Source of the DNA: a phage
Reading direction: 5' to 3' (one strand)
NCBI GenBank assembly: GCA_016658885.1
Contig: GCA_016658885.1_4807.1
DNA length: 64,000 bases
How positions within the stretch are numbered: the first letter of the stretch is position 1; each line of letters starts with the position of its first letter. The translations under genes were made by a program, and so were the position numbers. This document shows, one piece after another, positions 3,432 through 7,590 of this stretch. Under the pieces are notes generated by a model. That model searched no databases, was not told where the DNA came from, and saw nothing but the letters and a program-made list of their open reading frames with translations.

Positions 3432-3509
3432 TGGGTGGATGTCGCTTTAACCGTGAATCGTGGGTCGTGGGTCGCTTAGGGCGGCCCTTTCTTTTGCCTG
3501 CCGCGCAGG

Positions 3510-3775
3510 AGTGTACTGCAAATTTCCTGTGGGTACAAAATAGTACGGTACTGTCTAGGACTTTTTCTTTGAAAAGTTAGTGGGCAAATGTGTCGTATTT
3601 TGATTAGTGTACTGCAAATTTCATCAAGTACCAAAACGCACCAAAAGACCCATGCCATAAAAACCACACGAACGCAATAATCAATCGCCGTTACAGTTTC
3701 CAGCGTTACAATTCGAAAGCGAATGATTCGAAGCATAATAATATGAAGCATAATGATTCGAAAGCGAATGATTGC
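3510..3775. repeat. cluster of short direct repeats in a non-coding stretch
   Basis: AGTGTACTGCAAATTTC at 3510 and 3606; ATTCGAAAGCGAATGATT twice near 3711 and 3754; GAAGCATAAT twice near 3730 and 3746. Confidence 0.55.
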
Positions 3776-4090
3776 GTGTAGGATAATATCGGTGGGGATT
3801 ATTCTAGATGCGTGTAATTTCGCATGCGTACTATTTTCGGGCGAAGGGTCGGCATATTTATCGTTTTAGTTCGGAACGAAGGGAAAGTTTTGCGCCTTTA
3901 TAAAACAACGACTTACGCGACCCTCCCTAACGGTCCGATATAGGTGTCTATATAAAACAAGGACTTACGCGATGTTTTCCATTTAACGTAATACCCGTTA
4001 TGCGAACTAAGGCGCATCTCGACGAAGATTATGCGACGACGAAGGGAAGGATAAAGGAGTTTTCGCGGAGAAGCGCATCGAGATAGGGAC

Positions 4091-4116
4091 GAAGAAAAGC
4101 CGCGACTAAGCGCGGC
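4091..4116 (-). terminator. rho-independent terminator downstream of 4137..4427
   Basis: On minus strand GCCGCGCTTAGTCGCGGC hairpin followed by TTTTCTTC. Confidence 0.55.
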
Positions 4117-4136
4117 CTATTAGTAACGGAAGGGTA

Positions 4137-4427
4137 TTATAAGGAGACGATTTTAAAGAAAGAGTAACGGCCTTCGCCTTCGGATAGCGCGAGATATTCG
4201 CCGCCGAACTCCGTAGCAAAATAAACCTTACCTTCGATAGTAACGCGGAAGGTAGTAATATCTTCCTCTTCGAGTTCCGTAAATTCGCTAAAATCGATAG
4301 GACTATGAAGCTCTTCGATAGTTGCATCTACGTTAAAGAGATAAACGTTTTTAAGTTTTTCGCCAAATACGTTAGAGTTTTCGGAAGTTTCGACGCGAGC
4401 GGAACGGATAGCGGCTAAAGTAATCAT
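4137..4427 (-). CDS. small acidic protein (96 aa), island paralogue candidate
   Basis: ORF track; start context CTAGGAGAATATTATG shared with three neighbouring island genes; Asp/Glu-rich. Confidence 0.5.
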   Translation of the reverse strand: MITLAAIRSARVETSENSNVFGEKLKNVYLFNVDATIEELHSPIDFSEFTELEEEDITTFRVTIEGKVYFATEFGGEYLALSEGEGRYSFFKIVSL

Positions 4428-4451
4428 AATATTCTCCTAGTTAGTCGGGAG

Positions 4452-4472
4452 GGTAGCGACCTATTCGCTACC
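4452..4472 (-). promoter_or_regulatory. 5' leader RNA hairpin GGUAGCGA-AUAGG-UCGCUACC
   Basis: Perfect 8-bp stem and 5-nt loop, 24 nt upstream of the ATG at 4427; covarying copy at 5017..5037. Confidence 0.5.
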
Positions 4473-4494
4473 TCATCCCCTCTCGATATAAAAC

Positions 4495-4525
4495 ATTATA
4501 GTCTTAGTGTACGAAGAAGTAAAGC
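4495..4525 (-). promoter_or_regulatory. sigma70-like promoter for 4137..4427
   Basis: Minus-strand CTTTACTTCTTCGTACAC...TATAAT; same element repeated at 4894..4923 and 4965..4993. Confidence 0.45.
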
Positions 4526-4534
4526 ACTTTTTCG

Positions 4535-4837
4535 TTATTCTGCGATAAAATATTTATAAGCTTTATCGCCTTCTACGTCGATATACTCGACGATAATTAA
4601 CGCTTCGCCGCGAGGCGTAACCGTCTCGATAAGGGTAACGGCTTCGTCGTCGGTCTTCGCGAAGCGGATGGCGCTACATTCGGCGTACTTCATATCATCG
4701 AAGGAAAGGCCGATGAAGGCGACCGCGCGGACCTTAATGGCGCTAGATTCTAGTTCCGCGTTAACGGCGGCGATAAGAGAGCGAACGGTTAAGCGGTCTT
4801 CGTCGTAAGTAAGGATGGAAGAGATTAAAGTAGTCAT
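4535..4837 (-). CDS. small acidic protein (100 aa), island paralogue candidate
   Basis: ORF track trimmed to ATG at 4837 preceded by GGGAGCTTTATTATG; acidic composition. Confidence 0.5.
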   Translation of the reverse strand: MTTLISSILTYDEDRLTVRSLIAAVNAELESSAIKVRAVAFIGLSFDDMKYAECSAIRFAKTDDEAVTLIETVTPRGEALIIVEYIDVEGDKAYKYFIAE

Positions 4838-4893
4838 AATAAAGCTCCCGATGCTAGTAGAAGAAAGGGCCATCGCCCGTCTCGATATAAACA

Positions 4894-4923
4894 AGTATAC
4901 GCGAGTGTACGAAGAAGTAAAGA
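4894..4923 (-). promoter_or_regulatory. sigma70-like promoter for 4535..4837
   Basis: Minus-strand CTTTACTTCTTCGTACACTCGCGTATACT, followed by TGTTTATATCGAGACGGG as in the 4495 copy. Confidence 0.4.
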
Positions 4924-4964
4924 AAAAAGATAAAATAATTTATCGCATTTTTATCGAAAAAGTG

Positions 4965-4993
4965 CTTTACTTTTTTCTACACTATATTATAAT
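4965..4993 (+). promoter_or_regulatory. sigma70-like promoter for 5062..5376
   Basis: CTTTAC, 17-bp spacer, TATAAT; near-identical inverted copy of the 4504-4531 element. Confidence 0.45.
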
Positions 4994-5016
4994 GTACTCA
5001 TATCGGGACGGGATGA

Positions 5017-5037
5017 GTTAACGAATAGGTCGTTAAC
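5017..5037 (+). promoter_or_regulatory. 5' leader RNA hairpin GUUAACGA-AUAGG-UCGUUAAC
   Basis: Same loop and inner stem as the 4452..4472 hairpin with compensatory outer-stem changes; 24 nt upstream of the ATG at 5062. Confidence 0.5.
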
Positions 5038-5061
5038 GCCTCTCCCAACTAGGAGTTTATT

Positions 5062-5376
5062 ATGGCTATCGTTACCCGCTTTACCCTCGAAAACGCAACC
5101 GCCGAAGTCCAGGGCGTTACGCTTACTTACGGCGAAATTCTCGCGAAATTCTCCGGCGTTCGCTTAGGCGAAGAAATTAACGACGCGACGGTAATCGAGC
5201 AACTCGCTGCTTCTCGCTTAGAGCGCGACGAAAACGGATTCTTCGAAGTCGATGCGGAATTAAATTTATGCGGTAAAACGGCGTTTATTAACGAGTTCGA
5301 ACTCGCCGTTTTAGTTAATTACGATAGCAAAGCTTACGCCTTCGCCCTCGAATTAATCGAAGACGACGAAGAGTAA
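5062..5376 (+). CDS. small acidic protein (104 aa), island paralogue candidate
   Basis: ORF track; AGGAGTTTATTATG start context; ends IEDDEE. Confidence 0.55.
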   Translation: MAIVTRFTLENATAEVQGVTLTYGEILAKFSGVRLGEEINDATVIEQLAASRLERDENGFFEVDAELNLCGKTAFINEFELAVLVNYDSKAYAFALELIEDDEE

Positions 5377-5456
5377 GAGAGGATTTTTAGAGCGTCGTGC
5401 GCGGCGCTTTAATAAAATTCTTTCGCGCCTAGCGCCCTAACAAATAGGAGTTTATT

Positions 5457-6083
5457 ATGGTTAGCTTAAATCGCTTTTCTACTAGCGGCGACGTTATCGC
5501 AACTAAGACCGCCGACCTCGTTGCATTCTATAATGCAAATTCCGGCTCAAAACCGATTAAGAAGTTTGCGGACCGCCGGACCGCCGAGACTCGCGTAATC
5601 GCGTTAATCGAGTCCTTAAACGCGCTCGATGCGCCGTCCAACGAATCGCCCATCCCCGACGCTAAGCCGCGCGAGGAAGTGTCCAGCGATGTAAAAACGC
5701 ATAAGGCGCGTGCGGTCGTTAAAAAGGCTGAGCCTACCCAGGAAGAACTCGACGCGATGACCGACGAAGAATATGAAGCCTTCGTTAAGAGCGGTTTAAA
5801 CGATAGTGCAAATTGCGTAGTGCAAAATGGAACTCCTTCCCATCGCCGTTCGAATAGCGAAGGTATTGCAAAAAGCTGGGATAATAAGGAAGTGGCGCAA
5901 AAGCGTCTCACCCGTAACGGCGTTATGGTCGAGGGTGTAGGCGAGTTCAAATCGGTCCGCGTAGCGTTCGGCGCGCTGGGATTACCGGATAGCAAGCACA
6001 TTCGCTTCCGCATGAAGCTTAAGGAAGCTGGGCGCTTGAACTTCGAGTTCGGCAACAAGTCCTACACCTTCCAGATTATCTAA
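5457..6083 (+). CDS. hypothetical protein (208 aa)
   Basis: ORF track; identical AGGAGTTTATTATG context; carries two ATAGTGCAAAT-type motifs internally. Confidence 0.5.
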   Translation: MVSLNRFSTSGDVIATKTADLVAFYNANSGSKPIKKFADRRTAETRVIALIESLNALDAPSNESPIPDAKPREEVSSDVKTHKARAVVKKAEPTQEELDAMTDEEYEAFVKSGLNDSANCVVQNGTPSHRRSNSEGIAKSWDNKEVAQKRLTRNGVMVEGVGEFKSVRVAFGALGLPDSKHIRFRMKLKEAGRLNFEFGNKSYTFQII

Positions 6084-6089
6084 TCGAAT

Positions 6090-6113
6090 GGCGGCCCTTC
6101 GGGGTCGCTTTTC
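6090..6113 (+). terminator. rho-independent terminator
   Basis: GCGGCCC-ttcg-GGGTCGC hairpin followed by TTTTC. Confidence 0.55.
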
Positions 6114-6511
6114 ATAGTGCAAATTGGTGGCTTATGAATACTCTCATTCTCATCGCTACGTTGTCCATCGGAAGTGGTCGCACCTTATCCCTTTATGATC
6201 ATAGTGCAAATTGCGCTTACCCAACGCGCGTTGCGGCAATAGTTAATAGTGCAAATCGAATGCTATTCGAGACTTGTTGGCGGGTCGATAACGAGAAAGG
6301 TCGGGTAGTCTTAGGTTATAGTGCAAATCTGCTGGTGGAGTCGTTCGATTGGACGGTTGAAGGTCGTAAATTGTTACGGAAAGTGACTAAAAGATGACTT
6401 ATAATAATACACTTTCTAACGCGTTTATGGTTGTAACCTTCCCCATCGTATTACCGATGGCCCTAGAAGTGGAGAAAATGTGTTCTAGGGCCGTTTTATA
6501 GTGCAAATTGG

Positions 6512-6985
6512 CTAGTGGCGGGAGAATTGCTCACCTTCTTTGGCCGCCTCTCCAAAATCCTTGTAGAAATCGTCCATAGAACGGCCCATTTTACTATTGC
6601 CGTTTTCATCAATCATCGTGATGCCGTAGATGATATTCAGTTCACGAATAGCATTAAGCTTGGCTGATGCCGCGACTTCTGGATCACGCACAAGCTTGAC
6701 CAAATTGTGAATTGCACCTTTTACGCTCCATAAATCCTTGAGTGGCATTTCTTCCATACGCTTTTTGAAGCGCATTTTGTAGTACGGATTGCGTTGTGCG
6801 CAAAGGATTCGCTGGCCAGTGTAGTTATCCGTTGCAACTTCCATTCCAAATACTAGTGCAAAAGCTGCGCGCATGTCATGGCCCTGAATAACAAGGTCAA
6901 TGAACTCATCGAATAAAGCCTGATTGTGCTCTGCAAATCGCGGGTCTTCAAAGTCTTCAGGCATCGCTACATAATCTTGACTCAT
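6512..6985 (-). CDS. hypothetical protein (about 157 aa)
   Basis: ORF track trimmed to the MSQDY start; no motif recognised. Confidence 0.45.
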   Translation of the reverse strand: MSQDYVAMPEDFEDPRFAEHNQALFDEFIDLVIQGHDMRAAFALVFGMEVATDNYTGQRILCAQRNPYYKMRFKKRMEEMPLKDLWSVKGAIHNLVKLVRDPEVAASAKLNAIRELNIIYGITMIDENGNSKMGRSMDDFYKDFGEAAKEGEQFSRH

Positions 6986-7221
6986 AGTGCAAAATCCCAT
7001 AGTGCAAATTAATAGTGTGAATTATACAATGGATGGACATTATATTCAAGTGCAGATTGATGTTCATTATGGCTATAAACGTACACAAATCATAGTGCTG
7101 AATGGATAACGGACCGTGGTGCGTGGTGTACTGTTTGATACGAATAAAAGAAATCCATCCCTTTCGCCGCTTGCTATGCAAATCAAAGACTTAGCCGCTG
7201 CTGGCTGGTTGAAGCGTATCA

Positions 7222-7590
7222 TGACGTATCATCCGTATTGCCGCAAGTCTTTGTTTTTACTTATATATTACGGATGATACGTTAAATATATAAATTAACA
7301 TAAGTATGAGGATGTAGAAAAAAATTAATTTAAATTAATTCAAAATGGAGTTAATTAATTTTTCAAATTATATATATAACGATGCCCAGTTTTATCCGTA
7401 TCATCCGTAAGATTAATGTACAAGCCAGGCGCGGCAAGGGCTGTACACTGATACGGATAAAAAACCATGACGTATCATGACGTAAGGGTGTACCAATTTG
7501 GAAAGGATGAATCCAGGAACGGCGCGGCCTGTAGCCATGATACGCTTAATTTTTAACCGTATTTTAAGCGTATCAAATGTGTTCAAACAC
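7222..7590. repeat. iteron-like repeat region with AT-rich core (origin-like), copy 1
   Basis: Direct and inverted copies of ACGGATGATACG / CGTATCATCCGTA flanking an AT-rich block at 7310-7380; similar to 60190..60462. Confidence 0.6.

Follow-up and report, generated by a model that had tools for sequence, protein, structure and literature searches.

Base pairing at the 5' terminus protects Escherichia coli mRNAs from 5'-end-dependent attack by RNase E. Emory, Bouvet and Belasco reportedly described in 1992 how such pairing guards E. coli mRNAs against this enzyme. The stem-loop stabilisers of the ompA and papA 5' untranslated regions (UTRs) act independently of their sequence, and ompA-type stem-loops start at most ~2-4 nucleotides (nt) from the 5' end. 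Primary papers on protection by 5'-terminal pairing are among those listed in a review (PMC3997798). Here we describe a related element in a stretch of 64,000 nt of phage DNA (NCBI GenBank assembly GCA_016658885.1, contig GCA_016658885.1_4807.1), called the window below. Two early mRNA leaders on opposite strands of the window, one leading leftward into a gene for a protein of 96 amino acids (aa) and one leading rightward into a 104-aa gene, each contain a hairpin of 8 base pairs (bp) with the loop AUAGG. These hairpins are real and evolutionarily maintained. As in the ompA and papA stabilisers, each leader carries a portable stem-loop a few nt from the (here predicted) 5' end and separate from an accessible ribosome-binding site (RBS) downstream; the distance from the predicted start is 3-5 nt. 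The new element differs from them in being a two-part stem-loop with an almost invariant apex. Positions 3900-5500 are 98.5% identical to Escherichia phage vB_EcoM_WFC and HermannAdler (Bas98), about 29 Wifcevirus records were matched, and by its sequence the window belongs to a WFC-like E. coli myophage of the genus Wifcevirus. Phages of this genus are distantly related to Pbunavirus and have received hardly any study (PMC11990801).

A preliminary description of the locus, made from the letters alone, had reported the two hairpins as 8-bp stems with 5-nt loops that end exactly 24 nt before an ATG and differ in the outer stem by fully compensatory changes. The sequence bears this out (Table 1). 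Both hairpins end 24 nt before the ATG, at 4427 on the minus strand and at 5062 on the plus strand, and the four positions at which they differ make up two pairs, both fully compensated (G-C vs U-A and G-C vs A-U). Folded alone, the hairpins reach -11.7 and -6.9 kcal/mol, with z-scores of -4.8 and -4.6 against shuffled sequences. A perfect 8-bp hairpin by itself is not unusual in the window, where 13 are present against 7.2 +/- 3.1 in dinucleotide shuffles; the pair stands out through mutual homology. No other hairpin of the window that has an AUAGG-, AAUAG- or GUGGG-type loop is associated with a gene. An intrinsic (Rho-independent) terminator is excluded, in agreement with the preliminary description, because no U-run directly follows either hairpin; the sense strand continues with CCUCCCGAC or GCCUCUCCC and the antisense strand with UCAUCCC. 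A terminator scan of the window lists neither hairpin.

Each hairpin lies within an inverted duplication of ~125 nt that comprises a sigma70-type promoter, a conserved start AUCG, the leader, a Shine-Dalgarno (SD) sequence and the ATG. A repeat search delimits the inverted repeats as 4425-4489 / 5000-5064 (65 nt, 78%) and 4505-4537 / 4952-4984 (33 nt, 88%). The leftward and rightward copies can be aligned from upstream of the -35 box through the ATG and have in common the blocks GTGCTTTACTT (-35 region), TATAATGT and ATATCGRGASGGGATGAG, the hairpin, a C-rich run, ACTAGGAG and ATTATG. Since the inverted repeats cover both promoter and leader, the copies are of common descent, and duplication of the cassette accounts for a loop and inner pairs that are identical and for the equal spacing. 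Loop identity and the exact 24-nt spacing had been read as signatures of selection in their own right; both are inherited features, and the spacing between hairpin and ATG is 20-25 nt in relatives. We calculate a chance of ~6% that the central 11 nt stay identical at 78% overall identity. Duplication does not explain that all four hairpin differences fall into two compensated pairs, an outcome with a chance of ~5e-4 for four substitutions in 21 nt. The covariation offered by the window copies alone is limited to these two pairs.

For a broader comparison, the region was gathered from GenBank phages, IMG/VR, JGI/ENA metagenomes and Logan assemblies, and mean pairwise identities were obtained for 11 distinct Wifcevirus regions. 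The leftward leader is 97.3% identical and its hairpin 100%, while the adjoining coding sequence (CDS) of the 96-aa protein reaches 83.5%; the values for the rightward leader and hairpin are 93% and 97.6%. Nine distinct inner-hairpin sequences were found, with 97.2% of cells paired. Three pairs have changed on both sides, namely position 2 (U-A/G-C/C-G), position 3 (U-A/A-U) and position 5 (A-U/G-C). Covariation scores 0.42, compared with 0.196 +/- 0.045 for shuffles (0/500), and every slid register collapses. Each of the four one-sided transitions yields G.U when read on the sense strand and would yield A.C on the other; selection therefore acts on the structure of the sense RNA, at most on that of the non-template DNA strand, and not on a duplex operator. 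Thus the selected RNA structure that had been proposed from two copies is now solid, with nine variants and wobble pairs on the mRNA sense strand.

The leftward inner hairpin is identical in 44 fetched loci, and its variants are GGAAGCGA.., GGAAGUGA..UCGCUUCC, one loop AUGGG and one bulged C; the bulged variant retains 8 pairs. At position 3 an A.A mismatch is present in one lineage and is resolved to A-U in a relative. Rightward variants of the inner hairpin include GUUAGCGA (G.U), UCGUUGAC (U.G), GUUGACGA (G.U) and GCUAACGA/UCGUUAGC (C-G). The outer stem also keeps its pairing: the rightward 3' arm changes to CCUCUCCC, CCGCUCCC or CCCGUCGAG with GACGGG, GGGGCGG is found with CCGCGCCC, and the leftward variants CCUUCC and CCGCCC are still paired. 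The apex CGA-AUAGG-UCG is constant in about 40 loci per paralogue, with AUAGG to AUGGG as the sole loop change. A simpler hairpin in a third leader of the locus keeps its structure among relatives with free sequence (GGGC-GAUG-GCCC, AGAGGC-GAUGG-GCCUCU, GAGGGGC-GAUGA-GCCUCUC and GGGAG-ACACC-CUCCC). The apex thus appears constrained beyond the needs of pairing. A metagenome scan with the conserved 5' flank returned 58 stretches, among them five Wifcevirus contigs, all with unchanged hairpins; the remainder were chance matches. The GGCGGCGA-ATATx-TCGC "hairpins" of a loose scan lie inside the CDS of the 96-aa protein and are irrelevant.

The 8-bp hairpin of the preliminary description is present in both leaders, yet it is merely the apical part of a larger stem-loop that had been missed. 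From the predicted start, all leader variants adopt one fold consisting of 3-5 unpaired nt, an outer stem between a G-run and a C-run, a 5'-side internal loop of 4 nt and the 8-bp hairpin. The leader 5' of the hairpin reads AUAUCGRGASGGGAUGA. This two-part stem-loop is the minimum free energy (MFE) structure given by RNAfold for start-anchored leaders of both strands at every prefix of 45-75 nt, with SD and AUG unpaired. The SD lies 11 nt downstream of the hairpin's end and is not occluded by it.

The promoters of the two copies are highly conserved, with 98.5% for the leftward one among the 11 Wifcevirus regions, and the same promoter type was found in Kylevirus and Myosmarvirus. ATCG is kept 6-8 nt past the -10 box in all copies and relatives. 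From this arrangement we predict that transcription starts at the A of AUCG or AUAUCG, which is A4489 or A4487 leftward and A5000 or A5002 rightward. ONT-cappable-seq has located sigma70-like promoters in the related Pbunavirus 14-1, several of them active also in E. coli (PMC10914365). These data support the promoter assignment by homology of lifestyle, not directly. As a check for mimicry of a host leader, E. coli genomes were compared with the leader and no similarity was found.

Table 1. Coordinates of the leader elements and neighbouring features in the window.
Feature	Position	Strand	Details
Two-part 5' stem-loop, leftward leader	4443..4483	minus	outer stem GGGGA/UCCC(+), 5'-side internal loop AUGA, inner hairpin
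Inner hairpin, leftward leader	4452..4472	minus	GGTAGCGA-ATAGG-TCGCTACC as DNA; GGUAGCGA-AUAGG-UCGCUACC as RNA
Two-part 5' stem-loop, rightward leader	5005..5046	plus	outer stem GGGA.CGG / CCU.C.UCCC, internal loop AUGA, inner hairpin
Inner hairpin, rightward leader	5017..5037	plus	GTTAACGA-ATAGG-TCGTTAAC as DNA; GUUAACGA-AUAGG-UCGUUAAC as RNA
Sigma70-type promoter, leftward unit (96-aa gene)	4495..4523	minus	TTTACT-17-TATAAT; 10/12 consensus matches; preceded by A-rich stretch and GTGC
Sigma70-type promoter, rightward unit	4966..4993	plus	TTTACT-16-TATAAT; 10/12 consensus matches; 99.6% conserved
Shine-Dalgarno UAGGAG, 96-aa gene	4434..4439	minus	6 nt before ATG at 4427; unpaired in MFE of start-to-AUG leader
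Shine-Dalgarno UAGGAG, 104-aa gene	5050..5055	plus	from sequence
Third promoter copy, for the 100-aa gene	4894..4921	minus	TTTACT-16-TATACT
Simple 5' hairpin, third leader	4863..4883	minus	GAGA-C-GGGC GAUG GCCC-UUUC; equivalent position relative to start; no AUAGG apex
96-aa early protein gene	4137..4427	minus	acidic (pI 4.4); no Pfam/PHROG match
Terminator-like hairpin closing leftward unit	4097..4118	minus	terminator scan; annotated terminator in WFC and Mansfield
100-aa gene	4535-4837	minus	third promoter copy upstream
104-aa early gene	5062..5376	plus	acidic (pI 4.1); replaceable cassette
208-aa protein gene, rightward unit	5457..6083	plus	basic; conserved across lineage

The genes behind the leaders change far more than the leaders do. 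The 96-aa protein has 60-74% identity in many relatives, in phages that are otherwise ~90-98% identical and whose leader is 97% conserved. Such divergence is a pattern expected of host-interaction or anti-defence genes. The rightward leader precedes three different genes: the 104-aa gene in the window and WFC, a 94-aa paralogue of the 96-aa protein in phages of the Mansfield type (blastp 33%, E 2e-6) and the 208-aa gene directly in ECML-117, Eco4M-7 and RCIP0319, from which the 104-aa gene is absent. Since relatives carry a different gene or none there, the slot behind the rightward leader is a site of gene-cassette exchange, and the leader outlasts the exchange of the genes behind it. An SD-ATG segment is duplicated in the window at 5046-5082 and 5441-5477, on either side of the 104-aa gene, and looks like a scar left by insertion of the 104-aa cassette at the RBS. 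Comparisons of the early proteins with Pfam, PHROGs (function) and PDB sequences, and a fold search, gave no firm function.

Equivalent leaders in other genera were compared by way of homologues of the 208-aa protein. This protein is found in Pbunavirus-like phages of Pseudomonas, Xanthomonas, Serratia, Pantoea and E. coli (826 cluster representatives), with invariant residues W141, R150, R153, F184, R185 and K189, and has no sequence match in Pfam or PDB. Its AlphaFold model, built with 48 homologues, has a predicted local distance difference test score (pLDDT) of 84.7 and a predicted template modelling score (pTM) of 0.40. The model gives weak matches to winged-helix proteins (Foldseek E >= 0.2), which hint at nucleic-acid binding and nothing more. 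In Myosmarvirus phages of Serratia and Erwinia, the leader of the 208-aa homologue (42% identity) has the promoter TTGCCT..TATAAT, then AUCGAAAY and then the hairpin GGCGA-GUGGG-UCGCC. Its apex CGA-GUGGG-UCG has the same three closing pairs as in Wifcevirus, and the loop fits RURGG. In one Myosmarvirus species a U.G to C-G change lengthens the stem, and a second Myosmarvirus leader is two-part with the apex GGG-AAUAAG-CCC. The Pantoea phages of the genus Kylevirus have a simple 5' hairpin, compensated between Kyle and PA1 (GAAGGGG/CCUCUUC vs GAAAGC/GCUUUC), and the Kylevirus leader GGC-GA-CGG-AAUAGA-CCG-AA-GCC precedes a homologue of the 104-aa gene. G/C-rich 5' hairpins were also seen downstream of promoters in Pbunavirus PA19 (Pseudomonas) and in XcP1 (Xanthomonas). 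Hairpins close to the 5' end of the leader after such promoters are a trait of the whole lineage. An apex scan of IMG/VR returned Wifcevirus and three random G+C-rich matches, and a scan for -10 box, ATCG and apex gave genuine matches in Wifcevirus and Myosmarvirus only.

We think that there is about an even chance that the element is a cis-acting 5'-terminal leader structure which protects the immediate-early mRNA and insulates its RBS. Host sigma70 RNA polymerase would start at the conserved AUCG or AUAUCG, 6-8 nt past TATAAT, and the first ~45 nt would fold as they are transcribed, the outer G-run pairing with the C-rich run, followed by the internal loop and the 8-bp hairpin. This would leave 3-5 unpaired nt at the 5' end, and UAGGAG and AUG would follow 11 and 24 nt further on, in RNA without structure. 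The stem-loop could then shield the 5' end from RppH/RNase E 5'-end-dependent decay and tie up the C-rich segment that is otherwise able to pair with the SD. The promoter-leader module would give high, context-independent expression of any small host-takeover gene behind it, and the apex CGA-AUAGG-UCG (CGA-GUGGG-UCG in the Serratia phages) would probably add a sequence-specific contact with a candidate factor. The geometry of a 3-5 nt overhang, a stable stem-loop and a free consensus RBS fits the picture of 5' protection, and the portability before three genes fits an expression module. The element is a previously uncatalogued structured 5' leader of phage early mRNAs and as such belongs to a familiar class; what this class does not explain is the apex common to a second genus.

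Several findings weigh against this proposal. With 36 nt of CDS added, the equilibrium MFE passes to a long-range fold that pairs CUCC with the SD and exceeds the enforced 5' stem-loop in stability by 2.9-4.6 kcal/mol; the argument from an open RBS is therefore valid only co-transcriptionally or with ribosomes on the CDS. The start site is a prediction, and so is the 3-5 nt overhang. Kylevirus leaders of the 208-aa homologue are short and unstructured with no hairpin, so the hairpin is dispensable in a close relative. Finally, a pure stabiliser needs no given loop, yet the apex is almost invariant while the third-leader hairpin varies freely. This invariance seems to point to something more specific than a stabiliser.

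The main rival explanation is an RNA operator, in which a phage or host protein reads the apex CGA-RURGG-UCG on both divergent early leaders and co-ordinately represses, activates or times their translation or decay, for example in early shut-off. We regard this as possible, though rather doubtful. A translational operator had been one of the two functions suggested in the preliminary description. It is favoured by an apex that is invariant in about 40 loci per paralogue and has a single loop change (AUGGG), against at least six states of the distal stem, and by the absence of such sequence constraint from the neighbouring third-leader hairpin. It would also account for the apex with a GUGGG loop in the Myosmarvirus leader of a 208-aa homologue only 42% identical in protein, and for the related CGG-AAUAGA-CCG hairpin in the Kylevirus leader of the 104-aa homologue. 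A possible reader, the basic, lineage-wide 208-aa protein with its weak resemblance to nucleic-acid-binding folds, is encoded just downstream. The operators of MS2 coat protein, T4 gp43 and T4 RegA are likewise small 5'-leader hairpins with sequence-specific loops and closing pairs; however, these overlap or abut the SD or AUG, whereas the Wifcevirus hairpin stops 11 nt short of the SD and 24 nt (20-25 nt in relatives) short of the AUG. Kylevirus has a 208-aa homologue behind a leader without the hairpin, and Wifcevirus genomes are so closely related that the invariance has limited weight. More specifically, and a little more tentatively still, the apex could be a dedicated RNA operator common to the divergent Wifcevirus leaders and the Myosmarvirus leader, read by a putative protein (the 208-aa protein is one candidate and a host factor another) that times the burst and shut-off of host-takeover genes. 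If true, phages whose latent period is reported as unusually short would use a regulatory RNA-protein pair not yet described.

The preliminary description had also considered processing by an RNase. Classical E. coli RNase III substrates comprise roughly two turns (~20 bp) of coaxial helix, in many cases with an internal loop where the cut is made. In the Wifcevirus leaders the outer stem (4-7 bp) and the inner stem (8 bp) add up to an interrupted helix of ~15 bp; its internal loop, formed by 4 nt of the 5' side, is asymmetric, and the architecture loosely recalls T7 R1.1. A cut there by RNase III or another RNase would remove the 5' stem-loop and alter translation or decay, as at the early R sites of T7. 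The T7 sites R0.3 and R1.1 are also interrupted hairpins in leaders of highly expressed early genes for small acidic proteins, a setting that fits ours, but they lie between cistrons, while the Wifcevirus helix is shorter and sits at the very 5' end of the predicted primary transcript. With a lower stem of only 4-7 bp at the transcript end, a helix below the classical length, no Rfam match to the element at E <= 10 beyond noise level, and a conserved loop that is no feature of RNase III recognition, we find processing improbable. A nut or boxB-like antitermination site, as in lambda nutL and nutR, would give meaning to two divergent early transcripts that each have a small promoter-proximal hairpin with a conserved 5-nt loop and a related stem, and a terminator downstream of each unit. 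Nevertheless, no boxA-like sequence (CGCUCUUUA) is found upstream of the hairpin, the loops AUAGG, AUGGG and GUGGG are not GNRA-like as those of boxB are (GAAAA/GAAGA/GACAA), and the stem has 8 bp instead of 5 bp. Moreover, the early open reading frames (ORFs) include no N-like arginine-rich protein, being acidic (pI 4.1-4.4) or without an N-terminal arginine-rich motif, and positions 3480-4100 contain no convincing ORF on the leftward strand, so that no leftward genes behind the terminator need read-through. We consider antitermination extremely improbable.

Two further explanations do without a function in RNA. The palindrome could be a DNA operator for a dimeric protein, or a hairpin extruded from single-stranded DNA as a priming or replication signal in the terminal repeat where the locus lies. 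The perfect palindrome at +16 to +36 of two promoters would place a bound repressor where it could block elongation, and the downstream 208-aa protein may bind DNA, as far as its model indicates. Still, four natural variants disturb the symmetry of the DNA and remain paired, through G.U, in the sense strand alone, and the central 5 nt are not symmetric. A duplex operator would give no reason for symmetric compensated changes where the protein makes no contact, and the element travels with promoter, SD and ATG as a transcript leader. A DNA-level role is accordingly very improbable in our judgement. Alternatively, the hairpins could be a functionless relic that the duplicated cassette brings with it, the arms being held complementary by template-switch (quasi-palindrome) correction and not by selection. 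The copies do have common ancestry, 8-bp hairpins are common in the window, and Kylevirus manages without the hairpin. But the leader is far better conserved than the adjoining CDS, and neither the G.U variants nor the two-step replacement of A.A by A-U are products of palindrome correction. Pairing also persists in the outer stem, which is no palindrome of the inner one, and the apex recurs in another genus. A relic therefore seems to us hardly probable.

Other candidate features of the leader were rejected. An anti-SD switch, in which CCUCCC pairs with the 5' G-run or the SD, is not general; one rightward lineage has CCCGUCGAG and still forms the outer stem, and equilibrium folds vary with fragment length. 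A two-codon mini-ORF extends over the internal loop (4473-4476 / 5013-5016) and the 5' arm and reads AUG AGG UAG leftward, AUG AGU UAA rightward and AUG CGC UAA in a relative. It is not a conserved feature, since one leftward lineage lacks both AUG and stop (GGGGAGAGGAAGCGA); an SD-like run adjoins the AUG, and the mini-ORF is probably coincidental. GGTAGCG in the leftward leader resembles the ops element of RfaH, and the rightward leader has no match. A sigma-dependent pause element (-10-like) in the loop was dismissed because the Myosmarvirus version has none. An Rfam 15 search of positions 3800-5600 at E <= 10 gave two noise-level matches (E 0.8 and 3.2), both below the gathering score and off the leader stem-loops.

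The locus lies in a direct terminal repeat. The stretch is homologous to a region of phage Mansfield annotated inside a direct terminal repeat of 3,673 bp, and transfer of the coordinates from this annotation places the repeat at ~3644-7316 in the window, with positions 4452-5037 inside. A terminal repeat of ~3.7 kb is given in the description of WFC and WFH (PMC6563267). This DNA is present at both genome ends, and the predicted early promoters sit in it. The terminal redundancy of SPO1 and the first-step-transfer region of T5 are alike in having short genes without assigned function in a direct terminal repeat, several strong host-type promoters, divergent units and near-identical regulatory regions. 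This likeness is limited to genomic context, and we know of no conserved leader hairpin of such a kind in the pre-early modules of SPO1 or T5.

Several further observations concern the surroundings of the leaders. The two cassettes (4425-4537 and 4952-5064) flank the 100-aa gene and its promoter as arms of an imperfect inverted repeat of ~113 nt, and recombination between the arms would invert the segment with this gene. The products of the three small genes (4137-4427, 4535-4837 and 5062-5376) are acidic, with pI 4.1-4.4, and have no family match. The 100-aa gene is missing from one relative (locus L099) and replaced by an 89-aa gene in another (L103), and an extra 50-aa gene lies between the 100-aa and 96-aa genes in others (L096, L105, L106, L115-L117, L119 and L120). 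A terminator-like GC hairpin follows the 104-aa gene (5377-5456). Positions 3510-3972, at the inner edge of the terminal repeat, are poor in ORFs and contain several repeats: AGTGTACTGCAAATTTC occurs twice, at 3510 and 3606, four repeats with a 15-nt period lie at 3702-3789, and a 25-nt direct repeat, CTxTATAAAACAAxGACTTACGCGA, is found at 3896 and 3948. In the outer half of the terminal repeat (5801-7105, plus strand), about 10 copies of a 14-16 nt motif, (T)CATAGTGCAAAT(TGG), lie between and inside ORFs. These could be iterons, or signals for packaging, replication or injection close to the physical end of the genome.

The findings define a module for immediate-early expression in Wifcevirus, in which a strong host-type promoter and a conserved start are followed by a structured leader and a consensus RBS, and behind which genes are exchanged. 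For E. coli, this promoter-leader module is a compact expression cassette of natural origin that appears not to depend on context. Genes that follow it are likely to be among the first expressed and are candidates for host takeover or anti-defence. If the apex binds a factor, it would offer a handle on the timing of early expression in these phages; if it does not, the leader would be one more 5' protective stem-loop.

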